Below, one piece after another: positions 1,461 to 39,780 of a DNA stretch of 64,000 nucleotides. The DNA lies in assembly GCF_056746865.1 (NCBI RefSeq), contig NZ_JBWKMP010000003.1, one strand, 5' to 3'. Within the stretch, counting starts at the first letter, position 1; the number at the start of each line of letters is the position of its first letter. The position numbers and the translations under genes are program-made. The DNA comes from a plasmid. The notes under the pieces were generated by a model. It ran no database searches, had not been told where the DNA came from, and was given only the letters and a program-made list of their open reading frames with translations.

Positions 1461-2968
1461 TGGCTGGTGGTCGTAAGATTAAGTGCGTCACCAGTGATCC
1501 ACGTTGGCGCGATATGGTTATCAGGTATCGATACAACTTTACCCAGGCGGTTGTCGATATTTTTGGGATGTTCCCCTCCCACCAGCAGCAGCAGATCATT
1601 CAGTCAGTGCAGGAGACGGGGAGCAGGACGACCGTTACGTCCGGACACGGAACGGGTAAGTCGTCCCTTACCGCGATGTTGCTACTAATTTTTATGATCC
1701 TGTTCCCCGACGCCCGCGTCATTATTGTTGCGAACAAAATAGGCCAGGTAAAAACAGGCGTATTCAAATACGTGAAACAGTTTTGGGCGAATGCTGTTAA
1801 GCGCCACGGCTGGTTACAGACCTATTTTGTCCTGTCTGACACCATGTTTTATGAGCGTTCCCGTAAAGGGATATGGGAAGTGCTCTGTAAAGGTTATCGA
1901 CTCGGTAACGAAGAGGCACTGGCGGGGGAGCACGCGGAGCATTTACTGCTAATCCTTGATGAAGCATCGGGCATATCCGATAAGGCGATTAACGTCATGA
2001 CGGGGGCGTTAACGCAGAAAGATAACCGTATGCTCATGCTTTCCCAGCCTACGCGTCCAAGCGGTTACTTTTATGAATCTCACCATTCAAGGGCAAAGGC
2101 AGAAGGCAATCCGGAAGGTGTCTGGACGGCAATAGTCCTTAACTCTGAAGAATCACCATTCGTTGAACCGAGCTTTATTCGTGAGAAATTGCTGGAGTAC
2201 GGCGGCAGGGATTCGCTGGAGTACATGGTTAAGGTGCTGGGCCAGTTCCCGCGTGCAATTAACGGGTATTTGCTTGGTCGTGATGAGTGCGACCGCGCCG
2301 CACGGCGTAAAGTGTTGCTGGAGAAAGATTGGGGCTGGGTAGCGACCGCTGACGTCGGTAATGGTCGCGATAAATCGGTGCTCAATATATGCAAAGTATC
2401 CGGTTATCGTGAGAAACGACGCGTTGTGAACTTTAAGATACTGGAGATGCCAGGCACTATGGACCCGTTGGCTTTTGCCGACTTTATCTATAACGAATGC
2501 ACTCCTGATAAATACCCGAACATCACCATTGCTGTGGATGCTGATGGCTTTGGTTCAGATACGTGTGCGCAGCTTGTCCGCCGTGGTGCTAATCCCGTTC
2601 GCATCCGTTGGGGTAAGCCTATGTTTGCGCTAAGAGACAGAGAACGCTTTGTCAATCAGCGTGCTTACGCCAATATTATGGCAGGGGATGCCATTAAATC
2701 CGGGCGTATGCGTATCGATAGTGACCCCAAAACCGCAGATCAGGCATCAAAAATCCCGTATATGCTTAACGAAGAAGGGAAGGTAGCGATGATGCGCAAG
2801 GAGCACATGCGGCAGAAGTTAAACATCAAGTCACCGGACAGATGGGATACCTACTGCTTCACTATGCTGGTGGATTACGTGCCTGCTAATGAAGACATTG
2901 GCGCAGAACTCGCAACATTCCGCGATCAGGTGTTGGCAGAAGTGGATATTCCTGATATTGACATTTAA
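1460..2968 (+). CDS. pacB: terminase large subunit (PacB-like)
   Basis: Walker A (TSGHGTGKSS) and Walker B (LLILDEASGI) motifs; 502 aa; translationally coupled to pacA. Confidence 0.75.
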   Translation: MAGGRKIKCVTSDPRWRDMVIRYRYNFTQAVVDIFGMFPSHQQQQIIQSVQETGSRTTVTSGHGTGKSSLTAMLLLIFMILFPDARVIIVANKIGQVKTGVFKYVKQFWANAVKRHGWLQTYFVLSDTMFYERSRKGIWEVLCKGYRLGNEEALAGEHAEHLLLILDEASGISDKAINVMTGALTQKDNRMLMLSQPTRPSGYFYESHHSRAKAEGNPEGVWTAIVLNSEESPFVEPSFIREKLLEYGGRDSLEYMVKVLGQFPRAINGYLLGRDECDRAARRKVLLEKDWGWVATADVGNGRDKSVLNICKVSGYREKRRVVNFKILEMPGTMDPLAFADFIYNECTPDKYPNITIAVDADGFGSDTCAQLVRRGANPVRIRWGKPMFALRDRERFVNQRAYANIMAGDAIKSGRMRIDSDPKTADQASKIPYMLNEEGKVAMMRKEHMRQKLNIKSPDRWDTYCFTMLVDYVPANEDIGAELATFRDQVLAEVDIPDIDI

Positions 2969-9416: not shown

Positions 9417-9447
9417 GAAGCCCGCCTGGTTGAGCGGGCTTCTTTTC
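9417..9447 (+). terminator. intrinsic terminator after the rightward dut operon
   Basis: GAAGCCCGC-ctggttga-GCGGGCTTC hairpin followed by TTTTC. Confidence 0.5.
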
Positions 9448-9826
9448 AAATATTGGAACCATATAGTTCACGTAGTTTATCCGCTACTGAAGATACGGGG
9501 ATTTCACCAGTTGCAGCCCCCACCGCAAGTTCCACCAGCACGGGAGAATCATATACCTGTATACCGTTACGGCGTAGAAATAGCAGCGCACTGTTTAGCG
9601 CGGTACGCTTATTGGCATCATTGAATATATGCCCTCTCGCTGTAGCCACCAGGTAGGTGGCGGAGACTTCGAAAAGGTCGGTGATCTCTTCGTAGGCAAC
9701 TCTGGCCTGAACTCTCCCGATAATGGCCTCTGCCCTGCCCGGATCTGACATGCCAGGCAGGCCGCCGTAGCGGCTTATATTCGCATCATGAAGCGCAATA
9801 AGTTCTTCCGGTGATATATGCCTCAT
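9446..9826 (-). CDS. doc: Doc toxin (Fic/Doc family kinase)
   Basis: 126 aa; Fic motif HIFNDANKR; close match to P1 Doc as recalled; overlaps the phd stop. Confidence 0.9.
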
Positions 9827-10047
9827 TATCGGTTAACCAGTTCCTTGTTGGTGGAGTCCAGGGTGTCAAACAGGGATGCAAATTCAGCATCCAGCGCCGC
9901 TTTTTTGTAGGCTTCGAAAGTAGCCTTGCTGACAATTACTGCTGGCTCACGGCCTCTGCGGGTGATTTCAACCTCTTCCCCGGCTTCAACATTGTTGAGC
10001 ACTTCAGAAAGGTTGCCACGCGCGGTACGGAAGTTAATGGATTGCAT
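9826..10047 (-). CDS. phd: Phd antitoxin
   Basis: [32 protein letters not shown]...; start taken at the second ATG of the track ORF. Confidence 0.85.
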
Positions 10048-10119
10048 AAACACCTCGTGTACTCGTTATGTGTACACAATTATAAACTTCACAGGCATAA
10101 AGCACCAGCACTTTGCAGC

Positions 10120-10509
10120 TTAAATAACCGGACAATCATCAAATTCCCCACTTCGGGCATCATTGATGACATGAGTGATCACACCAAAAACAGCATTACT
10201 GCCCGTGTATCCATCGTCATCTACTGGTAACGCCTCTTTCTTCCCGGTGCTTAAGTCCTCCAGGTGCTGGCGCGGATACTTCCTGTATCTCTTTATGCGA
10301 TATTCACCCTCCATAGCGCACACAAGCAGAGAACCATCAACCGGAGTAAGCGAGGAATCAACCACCAGCAAAGCACCCTGCAATATTCCCTCACGGTGAT
10401 GGCTATCAGCTGCCCGCATGAAGTAGGTCGCTGAAGGATGTCTAATTATCTGCTGATCAAGAGAAATTCGGCTTTCAACATAATCCGCCGCAGGAGAAGG
10501 GAAGCCCAT
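10120..10509 (-). CDS. humD: UmuD'-like SOS mutagenesis protein HumD
   Basis: 129 aa; S24-peptidase/UmuD-like core (..RAADSH...LLVVDSS..RIKRY..); same neighbourhood as humD in P1. Confidence 0.75.
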   Translation of the reverse strand: MGFPSPAADYVESRISLDQQIIRHPSATYFMRAADSHHREGILQGALLVVDSSLTPVDGSLLVCAMEGEYRIKRYRKYPRQHLEDLSTGKKEALPVDDDGYTGSNAVFGVITHVINDARSGEFDDCPVI

Positions 10510-19551: not shown

Positions 19552-20238
19552 TTACGGCTGGCCTCCCTTCACCTGCTTTAGCGTCAGATTTCCGCAAAAA
19601 ACCGCGCCAGTGTCTATGTAGTGCTGGTTCCAGAAAGATTTCGGGCTGTTTACTGGCGTATGCCCGAAAATAAAGCTATCTGCACCAGTGATCATTCCAC
19701 CAACACCATCAACCGCGTCATAAAATCGCTCACGCCGCCAGGTAACATTGAGATCGCTAACAGGTTTACCAAACTGGTATTCGTTATCAGGATAGTCGGC
19801 ATGGGCTATAACGATAGTTTCATGCCCGGTGTTCAACTCAATGATATAGGGTAAACGTCTTACCAGCTCCACCAGCGCCCTGGCTAATATTTCCCGATCA
19901 GCGTCCAGCATGAAGAACCATTGGCCGCCATTCATTAGCCAGTTATTCACGTTGCCTGCGGGGCTTAACGCATCGATCATTAATCGCTCGTGGTTTCCCA
20001 TAACCGACCGAAACCAGGGCATCTGCAATAGCTCCAAGCATTCAACATTTTCGGTGCCGCGATCGATAAGGTCGCCAACCGATATCAGTAAATCCTGTGT
20101 CGGGTCAAAGTCCACACGATGAAGTTCAGACATCAATCTGGTGTAGCAACCATGCAGATCACCAACAACCCATATGTTTCTGTAGCCTGAACCATCAATA
20201 CGGCCATATAAATTCACTTCATGCAGCGCCTGGGTCAT
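19552..20238 (-). CDS. Ser/Thr protein phosphatase (lambda PP / NinI-like)
   Basis: Metallophosphoesterase motifs GDLHG, GDLIDRG, GNHE; start at the internal ATG. Confidence 0.75.
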
Positions 20239-20546
20239 GCGGCAACCTTCTCCCGCAGCCAGATACAAACCGGGCCATCTTCAGTGTCATGAATAGAGCC
20301 AACAAACCATCCTTCGCCCTCTGGTCGCTCTGGTTCCCAGGCGGCAATATCGGGACCATCTGCGTCCAGATTAAAATGATCTTCATCCATACTGCGAATA
20401 GTCCACTGAAGATTATTATCCTTCATCCAGGCGTCAAATTCCTCAGTGGATATATATTCACGACCTGCGCAAAACTTTTCATATTCCGGATGTGTCCAGC
20501 AGCCATATTCATCACGTTCTACCGGCATTTCTTTAATGATGCTCAC
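20235..20546 (-). CDS. hypothetical protein
   Basis: 103 aa; start and stop overlap the neighbouring genes. Confidence 0.4.
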
Positions 20547-20767
20547 TCTTCATCCTCCAAGTCGGCAACGGCCTCCATCACATCAGAACCGCGAATAACC
20601 TCAAAAGCACGGCAGGCCATTTCAAACACCTGTTGTTCTTGCGGATGCGGTGACTCCCAATACTTAAAACCAGGTCGATGCTCGTAACCCAACATGGAAT
20701 AAAAATCGCCAGCAAGTTCAATCGCTGCATCAACAAGTTCGCGATTTGTCATCGTCTGTTCTGTCAT
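20543..20767 (-). CDS. hypothetical protein
   Basis: 74-aa acidic ORF in the operon chain. Confidence 0.4.
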   Translation of the reverse strand: MTEQTMTNRELVDAAIELAGDFYSMLGYEHRPGFKYWESPHPQEQQVFEMACRAFEVIRGSDVMEAVADLEDEE

Positions 20768-21039
20768 TTTGTTTTCTCCTGTCTGAACATCACTATCATC
20801 AGGTCGCCTTTTGTCGCTATCCTGGCTGTTGTACCTGGTTCAATGCGGCTAAGCTCAAATGCGTCATAGAACGCTTCTAATGCCTTCTGGCGTAGTTCCT
20901 GTTTGCGCCGTTTTTTCCACTGTTTTAGGAAAATGGAACCCAGCCATCGCCATGTACGGGACATGATGTAAAGCCAACCGAGAAGTGCCAGACCGGTATT
21001 TAGGAGCGTATCGATCGTTATTGTCGTGTCGATATTCAC
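20764..21039 (-). CDS. small membrane protein
   Basis: GTG start overlapping the upstream stop after the conserved AAGGAGG; one hydrophobic helix. Confidence 0.4.
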   Translation of the reverse strand: MNIDTTITIDTLLNTGLALLGWLYIMSRTWRWLGSIFLKQWKKRRKQELRQKALEAFYDAFELSRIEPGTTARIATKGDLMIVMFRQEKTK

Positions 21040-21803
21040 TGGCTGCCTCCTTTGCGAAGCTGGTCGGCGAACAAACGTACACTAGACGCTTCACTGCGTA
21101 GAAACTTAACGGCATAATCAAAACCACCTCGTTCTGCGTCGTCTGCTCCGTTGTCGAGGTTATCTGCGTACATCTCTACCCCCTGCGCACGTACTTCAGC
21201 CAGGAAAGCATCGGTGGCTGGGGTATCAACACGGATACTGTCGCGCAAGATGAAAAATGCATTGAGCATTCCAGTCTCTGGCACTTCATCCTGATGCTTC
21301 TCATACGCATCAAGAGCCTTCATCATCTCAGCTCCGAATGGTTGAGGGTGCACAGACTTCAGCTCCGCATTCTCCGCCGCCAGCACCGCGCGTTCGCTCT
21401 CCAGTTCTGTAATGCGCCGTCTTGCAGCATCCAGTTCAATCGACAATTTTCCCAACTGCTCTTTATGCTTCTTGTATTCCTGATATGCGTGCCAAGACTG
21501 ACCTTTGCGCACACTATCCGTGATATCAGTAATCTGTTCTGGTGTTAGCGTGGTCAGTGGCTGTGCTGGGAAAATCAGCACTTTCCCAGCATCCCAATCA
21601 AAACCCACCTGAATTGACTGAACCTCAACTGATGGTGTTGAACCGATGCGACCAGGCGAATGAACAACGATCGTTACATCCATATCGCGACGATGGCTGT
21701 GGTTGTTGGACAAAATACGATTCACCAACTCCGAGAATTTGGAAAATTTCATGCTGATTCCCTTTGCTCTTCCTGGATAATGTTGTTGCAATCTTTCACG
21801 CAC
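21036..21803 (-). CDS. accessory protein, [13 protein letters not shown] / QLRKGGSQ paralog family
   Basis: 255 aa; motif shared with 15909-16571. Confidence 0.5.
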
Positions 21804-22072
21804 TCGTTGCAGATGAAAACGTTGTCCCCGGCAATTAACTTTTTAACGGTGTGCTGGGATTTGTTGCAGAAGCTGCAATAAAGCGTTGGACTGGCTGATA
21901 TGGATGGTGCGCCAGATGTCAGCCGCGCGATGTCGTTCTTGCGACGCAATATCACACGGCTGCACTCGACCAGCATCTCCGGGGATATATCCTCCTCCGT
22001 GGCGAGCGCCTCCAGACGTTCGAGCAAGCGAAATACTTTTTCCTGGGTGATTGCAGAATGCGATGTGGTCAT
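21749..22072 (-). CDS. ClpX N-terminal zinc-binding-domain-like protein
   Basis: [36 protein letters not shown] closely mirrors the ClpX C4 zinc-binding domain; AAGGAGAG Shine-Dalgarno; no AAA+ module. Confidence 0.5.
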
Positions 22073-22073
22073 C

Positions 22074-22724
22074 TCACTCTCCTTTGATGCGAATGCCAGC
22101 GGCACGGGAGTCATTCCATCGCTTTACTTCTTCACGAATTACGTCAATGCATTCTTTCGAATCCATTAGGTAATCTTCATCAAAAAGCCTTTCCTGTTCG
22201 TTTTCTATCGCAACAATGATTGCTTCAACTAACTTTTGTGCCTGAGAACCACTTTCTAACTCTGCAATGCGCTTCTCTGCGGCTTCCAGCTTCTCGCGCA
22301 TATCGTCAACGTACTCGACCAGAGATCCGCCAGCAGGAATTTCGCACTCCTCGACCAGTTGGAAGTAGATATCAGCTGCGGCCCGTGTGTTGCTATGCCT
22401 AGCGTCGCCCATCTCACCTTCACGAAGAGCATCGCGTTCGGCGGTAAGATTGGCTATTTTGCTGTCTTTGCCTTCAAGCTCAACGCGCAGCTTCCCTACC
22501 GTTAGCGCAATATCCTCGTTCTCCTGGTCGCGGCGTTTTATGTATTGCTGGTTTCTTTCCCGTTCATCCAGCAGCGCCAGCACAATGTGTGGCGTTATCA
22601 AGGACTCAAATTCGGCAACAGCTTGCTCACCTCGCTTGTAATTCTTAATCCCACCTAAATCTTTCGCGTTCTGTGCCGCCTCACGCAGCGCCAGTGTGTC
22701 GATGTCGATGTCGATGTTGCTCAT
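22074..22724 (-). CDS. Ea22-like family protein
   Basis: Shares the [35 protein letters not shown] block and C-terminal AAGIRIKGE with 15160-15912. Confidence 0.55.
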
Positions 22725-22954
22725 TGTGCCTCCTCGATTTCGTCCCATTCCACCCAGGCATTCTCTCCATCAGCATCGATTTCACCTTTGTGACCGCATT
22801 TGGAACAAACGGCCTCATCACCCGCCCACAAAGAATCTTTGGTTACCGACCATCCTGTTACCCTGGCTTTGCCGTGCTGGCACCTAGGGCAATCATCAAG
22901 CCATTCGACTTCGACCGTTGAAGGACCAAATCCATGTTCAGTTCGGATGCTCAT
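22721..22954 (-). CDS. zinc-ribbon protein
   Basis: CPRCQHG...CSKCGH; AAGGAG Shine-Dalgarno; overlaps the upstream stop. Confidence 0.45.
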   Translation of the reverse strand: MSIRTEHGFGPSTVEVEWLDDCPRCQHGKARVTGWSVTKDSLWAGDEAVCSKCGHKGEIDADGENAWVEWDEIEEAQ

Positions 22955-23454
22955 GACTGAACTCCTTTGCGAATCTGTTCCGCCCATTCTTCAAGGGATT
23001 TCTCCGCATATTCACCGGACAGGCCATCAATCGGATGCGGTTCATTAGCCAACTCTTCTTTCGCTGACAAAATCATGCGTGTAACGTCGAAAACTTCACG
23101 CAAAGACTTATTGATAAATCCGTGATTGAACGCAGCAGCAAGACGGCTTGCGGTGTAGTTAATCCCCTCGTTGCGTGCCTCCGCACGTATTTCAGCCAGG
23201 AAAGCGTCGGTGGCTGACATATTTCCTGTTGCCTTCATGGCCTTCAAAATAACCAGAACGCCATCTTGCCCAACCAACTCGGAGATAATCTCAGTGTTGT
23301 CGCCAACAACCTCACAGAATGCCTGAACAGCTTTACGAGCAAGTGCATTCTCCGCCGCCAGCGCCGCGCGCTCTTTCTCAAGTCGGGAAATTTCCGTTAC
23401 ATACTCAGCGTTACGCTCTGCCAGTTGTGCGGGCGTTAAACCTTCAGACTTCAT
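22951..23454 (-). CDS. accessory protein, TDAFLAEIRA paralog family
   Basis: 167 aa; motif family as 15909-16571. Confidence 0.45.
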   Translation of the reverse strand: MKSEGLTPAQLAERNAEYVTEISRLEKERAALAAENALARKAVQAFCEVVGDNTEIISELVGQDGVLVILKAMKATGNMSATDAFLAEIRAEARNEGINYTASRLAAAFNHGFINKSLREVFDVTRMILSAKEELANEPHPIDGLSGEYAEKSLEEWAEQIRKGVQS

Positions 23455-24521: not shown

Positions 24522-24564
24522 CATGACCTCCTGATATAGCGTCTGAAAAAAGTATCTTCATTTT

Positions 24565-24596
24565 GTGTTAGAAAATCAATTTTGATTTTCTAACAC
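24565..24596. promoter_or_regulatory. palindromic operator in the divergent promoter region
   Basis: GTGTTAGAAAATCAA-tt-TTGATTTTCTAACAC; 15-bp arms, perfect apart from the centre. Confidence 0.55.
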
Positions 24597-31811: not shown

Positions 31812-32150
31812 TCAGGCTGCTTTTTTATTCAGGTTCCGCTGAGAAATAAATTTTTCAGCAGTATTGATACGACTTAACTCTTCCTGAACGCGCATATCAT
31901 TTTCGACTTCCCACAGGTCTACTGCGGTCTGAAGATTAATCCAAAAATCTACAGAAGTATCGAATGCTTTTGCCAGGCGATATGCCATATCCATCGTTAG
32001 CTTACGATTGTTATTAACAAGAGCACTTACGGTGTTACGATGAACATGAAGTATTTCTGCTAACTCGTTGATCTTAAGCTCTAACGGCTCCAGGTATTCG
32101 TACAGCAGGATATCACCTACAGTCGTCGGTTTTCTGGTTGCCTGTTTCAT
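31812..32150 (-). CDS. higA: HigA antitoxin (HTH_XRE)
   Basis: TVGDILLYEYLEPLELKINELA...DFWINLQTAVDLWEVEN follows the HigA pattern; immediately downstream of higB. Confidence 0.7.
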   Translation of the reverse strand: MKQATRKPTTVGDILLYEYLEPLELKINELAEILHVHRNTVSALVNNNRKLTMDMAYRLAKAFDTSVDFWINLQTAVDLWEVENDMRVQEELSRINTAEKFISQRNLNKKAA

Positions 32151-32221
32151 TTTTTGCCCTTACTAGCGTGCGTATTAAGTGGACTCTGGTCAGTACCTGG
32201 CCCATCCGCCGGGTATTTGTT

Positions 32222-32524
32222 TTAGTATTTGTGAGGGTCGAGATACAAGTCCTCGGCCTTTCCGTTAACCCACTTAAAAATTAACCTGTATTGCTTATTC
32301 ACCCTTATTGATGAATAGCCGTTTAGCTTCCCTGACAATTCCTCATACCGATTACCTGGTGGTGATCTCAAGTCCTTCCAAGTAGTTGCAGCATTGATAA
32401 TATCCAGCTTCCGCAACAATGTAATCTGAATATCAGAAGGTATCTTTTTGTGTGGTATTGAAAATTCAAAAAAATCATCAAGCCACTCATCCCTGAAATT
32501 CTTTATGTTAATCTTTTTGCTCAT
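32222..32524 (-). CDS. higB: HigB toxin (RelE/ParE superfamily)
   Basis: 100 aa; C-terminal RVNKQYRLIFKWVNGKAEDLYLDPHKY matches the HigB pattern. Confidence 0.7.
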   Translation of the reverse strand: MSKKINIKNFRDEWLDDFFEFSIPHKKIPSDIQITLLRKLDIINAATTWKDLRSPPGNRYEELSGKLNGYSSIRVNKQYRLIFKWVNGKAEDLYLDPHKY

Positions 32525-37533: not shown

Positions 37534-38285
37534 TATTGGTGCTAAATTTATTTCTTATAGCGACAATCATCGTCCTGCGGCGGAAGCCACTATCAGCCAT
37601 ATGCGACGTATTCGCTCGGAGGACGAATTTGATCGCCCAGTCTTTAAGTGGGTCGGCGGCAAATTTTCTGCACTGCCCATTATCTTCGAACACCTGCCCC
37701 ACGGAAAACGGTTGATAGAACCTTTCGTTGGAGGTGGCGCTGTTTTCACTAATGCCGGATTTAAAAGCAACCTGCTGAACGATATCAATAATGACCTGAT
37801 TAACTTCTATCAGACATTGCAGCGTGAAGGGCATTCTCTTATCACACTGGCATATCGTTTTTTTCAGGATTACAACTCTGCTGATGCATTTTTGAATGTT
37901 CGCAATGCATTCAACAATGGTGCTTATGATTCCCTTCACCATGCAGCGGCGTTCCTGTATCTCAATCGTCATTGTTTTAATGGCGTCACTCGCTATAACC
38001 GTAAAGGAGAGTTCAACGTCGGATATGGAAAGCAGAAATCACCCCACTTCCCTCTCGCGGAAATGGAGGCGTTCCTGGCTGACGATATTTCAAAGTATTC
38101 GGAATTTGTGTCCGGCGATTTTGCTGGTGTAATTGAGGCTGCCGGGAATGATGATGTGATTTTCTGCGATCCCCCCTATGAACCATTGCCTGACACTACC
38201 GGATTTACAAATTACTCAGGGCATAGCTTTAGGTTTGAAGATCAACAACGGCTGGTGTCACTGCTGGTGGATGCTGGATTTGCCC

Positions 38286-39191
38286 CTATATTTCCAGACA
38301 CCTGTTATCACTTAACCCATTACTGGCCCGCTGCCGTAGATATTCCCGTGGCGAGCGATAACCCAGTGCACTATGCGGATGCCATTCGTTATAATGCTCG
38401 AACGCCTCTGCAAGGTTCTTTGCTGCCGTTAACCCGTCTGGTTTAGGCATGATACTGATGTAGTCACGCTTTATCGTTTTCACGAAGCTCTCTGCTATGC
38501 CGTTACTCTCCGGACTCCGCACCGCCGTGTTCTTCGGTTCAAGCCCCAACATCCGGGCAAACTGCCGTGTTTCATTAGCCCGGTAGCATGAACCATTATC
38601 CGTCAGCCACTCTACTGGAGACGCCGGAAGCTCGTTGCCGAAGCGGCGTTCCACCGCTCCCAGCATTACGTCCTGTACTGTTTCACTGTCGAAGCCGCCC
38701 GTAGTGACTGCCCAGTGCAGTGCCTCACGGTCACAGCAGTCCAGCGCGAACGTGACTCGCAGTTTTTCTCCGTTATCACAGCGGAACTCGAACCCGTCAG
38801 AGCACCATCGTTGATTGCTTTCTTTCACGGCCACTTTGCCAGTATGTGCCCGTTTCGATGGCGGTACAGCGGTTTTTCGCTCAAGCAACAGCGCATTCTG
38901 GCGCATGATCCGGTAAACACGTTTGGCATTGATCGCAGGCATACCATCAAGTTCGGCCTGTCTGCGAAGCAGCGCCCATACCCGACGATAACCATACGTG
39001 GGCAGCTCTCCGATAACATGGTGTATACGGAGAAGCACATCCGTATCATCTGAGTGACGGCTGCGGCGACCATCTTTCCAGTCATCGGTTCGTCTGAGAA
39101 TGACGTGCAACTGCGCACGCGACACCCGGAGACAACGGCTGACTAAGCTTACTCCCCATCCCCGGGCAATAAGGGCGCGTGCGCTATCCAC
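38286..39191 (-). CDS. insD: IS2 transposase InsD (orfB)
   Basis: 301 aa, very close to IS2 InsD as recalled ([38 protein letters not shown]..). Confidence 0.9.
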
Positions 39192-39514
39192 TTTTTTGCA
39201 CGCCCGTATTCAACGGCTTCTTTAAGGAGTTCATTTTCCATCGTTTTTTTGCCGAGCAGGCGCTGGAGTTCTTTAATCTGCTTCATGGCAGCAGCAAGTT
39301 CAGAGGCAGGAACGACCTGCTCTCCTGCGGCCACAGCAGTAAGACTTCCCTCCTGGTATTGCTTGCGCCAGAGAAATAACTGGCTGGCTGCCACACCGTG
39401 TTGCCGGGCAACAAGGGAGACCGTCATTCCCGGTTCAAAACTCTGCTGAACAATAGCGATCTTTTCCTGTGTAGTACGCCGTCTGCGTTTCTCCGGTCCT
39501 AAGACATCAATCAT
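39149..39514 (-). CDS. insC: IS2 InsC (orfA)
   Basis: [26 protein letters not shown]..; start at the internal ATG of the track ORF. Confidence 0.85.
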
Positions 39515-39780
39515 CTGCTCTCCAATGACTAGTCTAAAAACTAGTATTAAGACTATCACTTATTTAAGTGATATTGGTTGTCTGGAGATTCAGGGGGCCA
39601 GTCTAGATGCCCACAGACGCGGAGCGAAAATTGTGATAACAAACAGTGGTGCGCCTAACATTCGCGAACTTTACGTTGGCAATGGCTTCAAGGTGTATCC
39701 TATGCCATCCCGTCGCTCTGTATCCTGTAAAGCATCAACGCGAATGATAGCTAACGACATTATAGCCACACTTAATTAAG

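Follow-up and report, generated by a model that had tools for sequence, protein, structure and literature searches.

The subject of this analysis is a 107-residue protein encoded on the minus strand of the window, i.e. the whole 64,000-nucleotide stretch of contig NZ_JBWKMP010000003.1 (assembly GCF_056746865.1) that we analyzed, which is a D6-like phage-plasmid of Escherichia coli. We found that residues 64-106 of this protein constitute a true ClpX-type C4 zinc-binding domain (ZBD), with a similarity to the ClpX domain that is far beyond chance, and that this domain stands behind an orphan helical domain. We propose, with a probability of roughly 0.4, that the phage protein is a competitor that would bind the ligands of the ClpX ZBD and thereby selectively shut off adaptor- or N-domain-dependent ClpXP proteolysis in early lytic development.

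The assignment of the ZBD comes from sequence and structure searches alike. The Pfam model zf-C4_ClpX (PF06689) matched residues 65-101 over model positions 2-39 of 39 (E=1.7e-17, 63.4 bits), and phmmer against the PDB returned the E. coli ClpX ZBD entries 1ovx (E=1e-15) and 2ds5 (E=4e-15), with full-length ClpX chains matched too. Identity to E. coli K-12 ClpX amounts to 29 of 45 aligned residues (64%) and to 28 of 39 in the core (72%), while the ZBD of the P88-type relatives is 79% identical to E. coli ClpX by hand count. The putative zinc ligands C66, C69, C88 and C91 have the CxxC-x18-CxxC spacing of ClpX and are invariant in 26/26 family sequences, and the fifth conserved cysteine of ClpX is also present in the window protein. 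In the AlphaFold model of the window protein (mean predicted local distance difference test score, pLDDT, of 77), a linker joins a helical hairpin (H10-26, H31-52) to a small zinc-finger module. The best Foldseek matches of this model in the PDB are all ClpX, with the full-length model 9a5x first, then 2ds5, 2ds8, 2ds6, 2ds7 and 1ovx; its superposition with 2ds5, 2ds8 and 1ovx gave 1.9-2.4 A and TM(target) of 0.65-0.72. The predicted fold of the ZBD is a treble clef, as in the ClpX ZBD structures 2DS5, 2DS8 and 1OVX; judging from its sequence the phage ZBD would bind zinc, and the protein presumably dimerizes.

An earlier sequence-only reading of this DNA had held that the C-terminal 40 or so residues resemble the N-terminal C4 ZBD of ClpX and that the protein is a free copy of the ClpX N-domain devoid of the ATPase. 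Both claims are borne out in full, with the similarity spanning about 40-45 residues, significant when aligned with the N-domain of ClpX and recovered from the predicted structure. The NCBIfam ClpX equivalogs NF003745 and TIGR00382 scored 47.5 and 43.6 bits vs. cut-offs of 359 and 370.75, matching at model positions 5-50 only; with these scores far under the cut-offs, there is no AAA+ module in the 107-residue protein, and it is not a ClpX unfoldase. Within Pfam, zf-C4_ClpX was the sole match, with none to the Ead/Ea22-like family PF13935, and PADLOC-DB yielded 0 families at E<=0.01 for the ZBD protein and three of its neighbors.

The ORF (open reading frame) is a real gene with a good ribosome-binding site (Table 1); it lies where the sequence-only reading had placed it, with the same length of 107 residues and the peptide quoted there at residues 64-99. 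Its ATG occupies 22070-22072 and its TGA 21749-21751. The upstream Ead/Ea22-like ORF (22074..22748) ends at a TGA at 22074-22076, 1 nt short of the ATG of the ZBD gene, and the ATG of the downstream ORF (21036..21752) overlaps the stop of the ZBD gene as ATGA; in view of this spacing and overlap, the ZBD gene is translationally coupled to both neighbors within an operon. The same 324-nt coding sequence is found in the RefSeq annotation of a 99.5% identical plasmid, and an exact-sequence look-up matched the window protein to RefSeq WP_223064324.1, 'ClpX C4-type zinc finger protein'. A longer, 121-residue reading from an ATG at 22114 was rejected, as it has no Shine-Dalgarno sequence, overlaps the upstream ORF and uses a start that is neither annotated nor conserved.

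Table 1. Positions in the window of the ZBD gene, its parts and signals, and of other features discussed in the text.
Feature	Position	Strand	Basis
Stand-alone ClpX-ZBD protein, coding sequence	21749..22072	minus	107 residues + stop; ORF list and direct sequence reading
Shine-Dalgarno AAGGAG	22079..22084	minus	6 nt 5' of the ATG; direct sequence reading
Orphan N-terminal domain (residues 1-55), predicted two-helix hairpin H10-26 + H31-52, acidic, amphipathic	21908..22072	minus	AlphaFold pLDDT 81-91 over residues 11-40
Linker (residues 56-63, SISASPT region)	21884..21907	minus	pLDDT 64-75, no secondary structure, variable
ClpX-type C4 ZBD (residues 64-106)	21755..21883	minus	Pfam, PDB sequence search, Foldseek, per-position ClpX comparison
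Perfect 14+14 bp palindrome GTGTTAGAAAATCA-ATTT-TGATTTTCTAACAC	24565..24596	.	Divergent region between ref-like gene and head of ZBD-gene array
HumD	10120..10509	minus	NF051876, 220 bits
Phd	9826..10053	minus	Part of P1-like humD-phd-doc cluster
Doc	9446..9826	minus	TIGR01550

At the DNA level the ZBD is 59% identical to K-12 clpX, and 14 of the 29 identical residues share a codon, which rules out a recent capture from host clpX. The persistence of the protein similarity despite this divergence of the DNA points to a ZBD that was captured long ago and whose similarity has been maintained by selection. The term 'mimic', as used in the sequence-only reading, is best taken to mean a homologue, a domain captured in the distant past, as opposed to a convergent look-alike. 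We compared 26 family sequences with six ClpX sequences (five of them gamma-proteobacterial by name or close similarity), using the ClpX numbering of the literature. At least 23 of the 26 keep L12, C14, S15, F16, C17, K19, Q21, V24, L27, I28, A29, G30, V33, I35, C36, E38, C39, V40, C43, N44 and I47; K26 is kept in 21, and position 34 is F or Y in 24. The pocket residues F16 and I46 of ClpX correspond to F68 (26/26) and I/V98 (24/26) in the family, and this conservation argues that the docking pocket is at least partly preserved, with the surrounding surface having drifted or been retuned. Given purifying selection and wide conservation, pseudogenization is no general explanation for the gene. 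Two copies among the IMG/VR contigs, in L030 (4001..4849) and L041 (3941..4822), are probably inactivated: a frameshift after '...FICDEC' cuts the ZBD before its last helix, and the frameshifted ZBD is fused to the downstream Ea22-like gene.

How a free docking domain might act can be gauged from work on ClpX itself. The adaptors SspB and RssB, and substrates such as MuA, FtsZ and lambda O, depend on the N-domain of ClpX, whereas ssrA is recognized directly and does not require it (PMC5415555; PMC7226468), and deletion of the ClpX ZBD leaves ssrA substrates unaffected (PMC7226468). In the ClpX ZBD dimer, the hydrophobic pocket made up of F16 and I46 overlaps the sites at which trigger factor, lambda O, SspB and RssB bind (PMC7804408), and the ligands of the ZBD have a common 'LKxh' motif that resembles the XB tail of SspB (PMC7226468). 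When supplied in trans at 5-20 uM, the ClpX ZBD inhibits the RssB-mediated breakdown of sigma-S by 0.6 uM ClpXP (PMC7226468, Fig. 1d). It is this precedent of in-trans inhibition, together with the 'LKxh' ligand motif, that leads us to favor a competitor, and the competition for ClpX adaptors or substrates that the sequence-only reading had raised is made plausible by this precedent, by the kept equivalents of F16 and I46 and by the protein similarity that has outlasted the divergence of the DNA. In the mechanism that we envisage: 1) temperate phages and phage-plasmids would express the protein from their early lytic operons; 2) its free docking surface would bind the XB-like 'LKxh' peptides of SspB, and likewise RssB, UmuD-type tethers and N-domain-dependent substrates such as lambda-O- or MuA-type proteins; 3) the bound adaptors and substrates would be titrated away from ClpX; and 4) adaptor- and N-domain-dependent ClpXP proteolysis would selectively be lost, with direct ssrA-type degradation spared. 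The orphan N-domain would supply oligomerization or avidity, target binding or both, or an extra specificity contact. The pathways affected by such a decoy would be those of RssB and sigma-S, of SspB, of UmuD/D'-type tethering and of replication and transposition proteins, possibly also of antitoxins such as Phd. That partners are bound, that the gene is expressed early and that proteolysis is affected are the steps of this mechanism that we infer.

Several observations weigh against the competitor mechanism. First, ZBD positions that are invariant in the six ClpX sequences are replaced in the family, namely G18 by N, E23 by A or T, P31 by D or E, S32 by various residues, L42 by V, D or A (Asp in the window protein) and D45 by N or R. 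In addition, the ZBD evolves faster than the N-domain, with a ratio of non-synonymous to synonymous substitution (dN/dS) of about 0.64 vs. about 0.28, the 8-residue linker reaching about 1.6 on few sites; these are pooled pairwise Nei-Gojobori values from 20 distinct coding sequences and are rough, the pairs being non-independent and recombination unscreened. With ClpX-invariant residues lost and the ZBD evolving faster, the ligand range of the phage ZBD may differ from that of ClpX. Second, because a micromolar excess of ZBD is required in vitro (PMC7226468), the affinities of the ZBD for its ligands appear weak, and a protein acting purely as a decoy would have to be highly expressed or gain from avidity. 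Third, a (GGGGS)6-linked tandem, given to AlphaFold as a single-chain stand-in for the dimer, was not modelled as a dimer with confidence, the predicted TM score (pTM) being 0.43 and the ZBD pLDDT 40-55. Fourth, early repressor-controlled expression is read from gene order and a repeated motif, both described below. Fifth, a full-text literature search retrieved no functional study of a family member or of any other stand-alone phage ZBD. Finally, zf-C4_ClpX is also found outside ClpX, e.g. on cyanobacterial sigma factors.

Its presence there as an accessory domain is also what one would expect if the treble-clef finger were used independently of ClpX, as a generic peptide-, protein- or nucleic-acid-binding module acting on the Ead/Ea22-like neighbors or on another host target, with ClpXP unaffected. 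Such a use would fit with the change of several ClpX-invariant surface residues, with the comparatively fast evolution of the ZBD and with the mosaic Ead/Ea22-like genes, engaged in module exchange, that lie on both sides of the ZBD gene in about 27 loci of 36 IMG/VR contigs. However, an identity of 64-79% to the host ClpX ZBD, extending to the surface residues K19, Q21, K26, E38 and N44, exceeds the needs of the fold and has been retained despite synonymous divergence; furthermore, the P2-like phages carry the gene without Ea22-like neighbors, so the linkage to Ea22 is not obligatory. We consider a ClpX-independent use unlikely.

With a profile built on residues 1-59, which cover the orphan N-terminal domain, we obtained 13 clusters out of 1.84 billion representative proteins; the 11 that were read all belong to the same two-domain family, of the D6 type, the P88 type or the Salmonella P2-like type, or are truncated or frameshifted copies of it, so that among these representatives the N-domain was found only fused to the ZBD. 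The same profile retrieved nothing below E=0.4 from the PDB and nothing below E=0.02 from Pfam, and Foldseek against the PDB and BFVD matched the ZBD part alone, with no relative of the N-domain. Visual inspection of the N-domain for XB-like 'LKxh' motifs, through which it might bind itself or ClpX, gave nothing convincing, the motif being too low in information to test. By the dN/dS values above, the N-domain appears to be the most constrained part of the gene, and since the orphan domain is the more constrained half, the picture of a bare decoy is probably too simple.

One explanation that would give the N-domain a leading part is a hijack of ClpX by hetero-dimerization, in which the phage ZBD, rather than forming homodimers only, pairs with the ZBDs of ClpX subunits and mounts the orphan N-domain on the ClpX ring; the mounted domain could obstruct the pore or the platform for adaptors, or could serve as an adaptor specified by the phage, bringing new substrates to ClpXP or shielding specific ones. 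An N-domain that is most constrained (dN/dS of about 0.28) and occurs only with the ZBD is expected if the ZBD is the anchor and the N-domain the payload; most hydrophobic residues conserved in ClpX (L12, F16, I28, V33, I35, V40, C43, I46 and I47) are kept, and the ClpX ZBD is known to be an autonomous dimerization domain (PMC5415555; PMC7226468). However, the window protein has Asp in place of L42, where most relatives have Val or Ala, and the bare ZBDs of phages Cr30 and PP9W2 and the tandem ZBD-ZBD proteins, described below, fit better with a self-sufficient ZBD2 unit. In addition, Wojtyra et al. reportedly found in 2003 that the ZBD of ClpX forms highly stable dimers, which are kept together within a single hexamer, and with such stability the exchange of subunits may be slow. 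We regard the hijack as rather unlikely as well, albeit foremost among the alternatives to a competitor.

The N-terminus of the family appears to be exchangeable. In the rare variants P0022 and P0024, the same ZBD lies behind unrelated Ea22-like coiled-coil N-termini, joined around ...SGAPSVSASPT, and in P0001, P0003, L032, L035 and L036 the ZBD gene is fused to the 'MKSEGLTPAQLAERNAE' module, which in the window forms the N-terminus of ORF 22951..23454; the joints of the variant N-termini fall in the linker, which is the recombination joint. This fusion of one ZBD to other coiled-coil-like N-termini suggests that the ZBD is the effector module and that the N-termini are exchangeable helical modules, which probably serve oligomerization or targeting. 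Around the ZBD gene we also observed heavy module shuffling among Ead/Ea22-like genes (window 20235..23454, loci L006-L041), with '...LAAENA.LK...' segments recurring at the joints of the shuffled genes.

As to the element, a 24-kb structural segment of the window aligns with phage D6 over 72% of its length at 82% identity, and the surroundings of the ZBD gene agree at 99.5% identity with an E. coli plasmid of 92.8 kb that bears Ref, Icd, antirepressor, theta and tail genes as well as HigBA. The ZBD protein was encountered in four types of temperate phage, i.e. lambdoid phages, D6-like phages, phage-plasmids of about 108 kb and P2-like phages. In the window its neighbors are annotated Ead/Ea22. 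In a Pfam-annotated contig with a lambdoid prophage, the gene order is cI, N, ral, recT, ea22, ZBD, DUF551 and DUF4752, which we read as the order of the lambda leftward (pL) early operon. In the phage-plasmids of about 108 kb, the ZBD gene belongs to a long array of genes on one strand, and a HumD-like S24 peptidase is encoded 3-5.5 kb downstream of it; four contigs of this kind (L044, L046-L048) encode an identical ZBD protein together with Dam, RNase H, ParA and a methionyl-tRNA-synthetase-like gene, their S24 peptidase of 129 residues lying on the same strand. In Salmonella P2-like prophages and in P88, the gene comes after replication gene A and before ogr or portal, and has no Ea22-like neighbors. 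These positions suggest an early host-takeover gene. We saw no obligate partner gene, the neighbors being mostly mosaic Ead/Ea22-like genes that are missing in the P2-like contexts.

The minus-strand array that holds the ZBD gene in the window starts near 24525, and the divergent region at its head contains the perfect palindrome of Table 1. Its half-site GTGTTAGAAAATCA occurs 8 times in the window at <=2 mismatches vs. 0.54 expected, the other positions being 5455, 19489, 25214, 35937, 45345 and 48359, whereas the P1 C1 operator consensus ATTGCTCTAATAAATTT had 0 matches in the window at <=3 mismatches. The palindrome is likely a candidate operator or promoter element of a D6-type repressor, and its place at the head of the array hints that the array may be repressed in lysogeny and expressed early after induction.

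The same strand carries, about 12 kb downstream of the ZBD gene, a humD-phd-doc cluster (9446..10509). Phd of P1 is a classical ClpXP substrate, and the turnover of UmuD/UmuD' involves tethering to the ClpX N-domain; this makes HumD and Phd of this element attractive as candidate clients, or beneficiaries, of the ZBD protein. Since the ZBD family is also carried by lambdoid and P2-like phages that have neither humD nor phd-doc, HumD, Phd and Doc are not its general target. Their presence in the window would also be in keeping with a prophage moron that acts in lysogeny, either by altering host physiology (e.g. through stabilized RpoS, UmuD'/HumD or Phd) or by excluding superinfecting phages whose ZBD-binding proteins it sequesters. 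In P2-like phages the gene indeed sits between replication gene A and ogr/portal, a variable region that in P2 is the site of tin and old. Nevertheless, neither the protein nor its neighbors had a PADLOC match, the gene of the lambdoid phages and phage-plasmids is deep inside long operons and has no promoter of its own, and the family extends to phages that lack humD and phd-doc; we therefore hold a moron role to be quite improbable. A second toxin-antitoxin module was noticed in the window at 31812..32524 (minus strand), comprising a HigA antitoxin (TIGR02607) beside a 100-residue ORF to which the annotation of the near-identical plasmid assigns a HigB-family toxin. The D6-like backbone also bears a copy of IS2 at about 38266..39605 (InsC 39149..39559 and InsD 38286..39191, minus strand), which is 95-99.6% identical to the IS2 of other phage records.

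The family is already catalogued, as D6 orf93, P88 gp19, PHROG 6797 and in RefSeq, and its domain had already been called by Pfam and by the Prokaryotic Genome Annotation Pipeline (PGAP). The window protein is 83% identical to orf93 of phage D6 and about 49% identical to gp19 of the P2-like phage P88, and it matches PHROG 6797 (function unknown) over residues 1-106 of 107 at E=1.5e-56. The name 'carboxylate--amine ligase', which is attached to D6 orf93, P88 gp19 and many E. coli and Salmonella entries, is a propagated misannotation; such an identity was rejected, since Pfam and NCBIfam reveal no ligase domain of the ATP-grasp or GCS2 type and the protein has merely 107 residues. A near-full-length copy is present in 107 of 5,426 complete E. 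coli genomes (about 2%), and the named carriers are Escherichia coli, E. marmotae, Shigella flexneri and Salmonella enterica.

Stand-alone ZBDs were also seen outside this family. The T4-like Caulobacter phage Cr30 (L004, about 2507..2725) encodes a 72-residue bare ClpX-type ZBD (MSRKKSWKQSMKSKQTLYCSFCGKSHREV...), of which the annotated 41-residue gp170 is a mis-called fragment, the frame opening at an ATG about 90 nt upstream; Pseudomonas phage PP9W2 has a 65-residue stand-alone ZBD (PHROG 12435) under the name 'Clp protease'; and in metagenomes, proteins about 100-145 residues long (P0067, P0080, P0114, P0120, P0123 and P0148, also P0025) consist of two ZBDs in tandem, in effect covalent ZBD dimers, and have no ATPase. 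This recurrence of stand-alone ZBDs suggests an unexplored theme. We surmise, more tentatively than for the competitor mechanism itself, that at least four temperate enterobacterial phage lineages carry a receptor-domain decoy against ClpXP, built from a captured adaptor-docking domain and an orphan specificity or oligomerization domain, which would shut off adaptor- and N-domain-dependent proteolysis in early lytic growth while leaving basal ClpXP intact, with the bare and tandem ZBDs as further examples.

ClpXP controls the turnover of lambda O and MuA, the removal of Mu repressor and LexA fragments, the decay of Phd, the level of RpoS and the stability of UmuD'. Phage inhibitors are known for Lon, FtsH and ClpC, and we know of none that copies the receptor domain of the protease. 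At the level of annotation our finding was already known; a decoy mechanism, if true, would be new among phage modulators of host proteases. It would then provide a selective tool of natural origin with which adaptor-dependent ClpXP degradation could be told apart from the direct kind, would explain the recurrent and ignored 'ClpX C4-type zinc finger' ORFs of phages and metagenomes, and would introduce receptor-domain capture as a new principle in phage-host conflicts over proteolysis, including protease-triggered toxin-antitoxin defenses. If it is false, what we describe is simply a correctly recognized domain in an already catalogued hypothetical phage protein.

Among known systems, the N-terminal ZBD of E. 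coli ClpX shares with the phage ZBD the CxxC-x18-CxxC ligands, the extra cysteine, 64-72% identity, the predicted treble-clef fold and the F16/I46 pocket; in contrast to ClpX, the phage ZBD is C-terminal rather than N-terminal, lacks the AAA+ ATPase, stands behind an orphan helical domain, evolves much faster than the host domain and is substituted at G18, E23, P31, S32, L42 and D45. The proposed role, that of a small phage protein altering host proteolysis in favor of the phage, is shared by PinA of T4 and gp4.5 of T7, which act against Lon, by RexB and CIII of lambda, which act against ClpP-dependent degradation and FtsH, respectively, and by Gp53 of SPO1, which acts on ClpC. To our knowledge, none of these five copies a receptor domain of the protease itself, and we would expect no homology. 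The 72-residue protein of Cr30, the 65-residue protein of PP9W2 and the metagenomic tandem ZBD-ZBD proteins, several of them from phages, likewise have ClpX-type ZBDs and no ATPase, but are separate families without the N-terminal hairpin. The anti-adaptors IraD, IraM and IraP of E. coli resemble the proposed decoy in being small proteins that act at the adaptor step to keep a substrate from being delivered to ClpXP; they target a single adaptor, RssB, while a copy of the ZBD could in principle bind any ZBD ligand, and we saw no hint of a relationship between them and the phage protein, no direct comparison having been made. IraD has been proposed to use the same site on RssB as the ClpX ZBD (PMC7226468). 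A parallel in mechanism comes from Micevski et al. (2020, PMC7226468), whose in vitro competitor was the isolated recombinant ClpX ZBD, a free, motorless ZBD that binds RssB and inhibits the degradation of sigma-S just as we propose for the phage protein, yet that ZBD is a laboratory construct without an extra domain, whereas the phage protein is the product of a natural gene.

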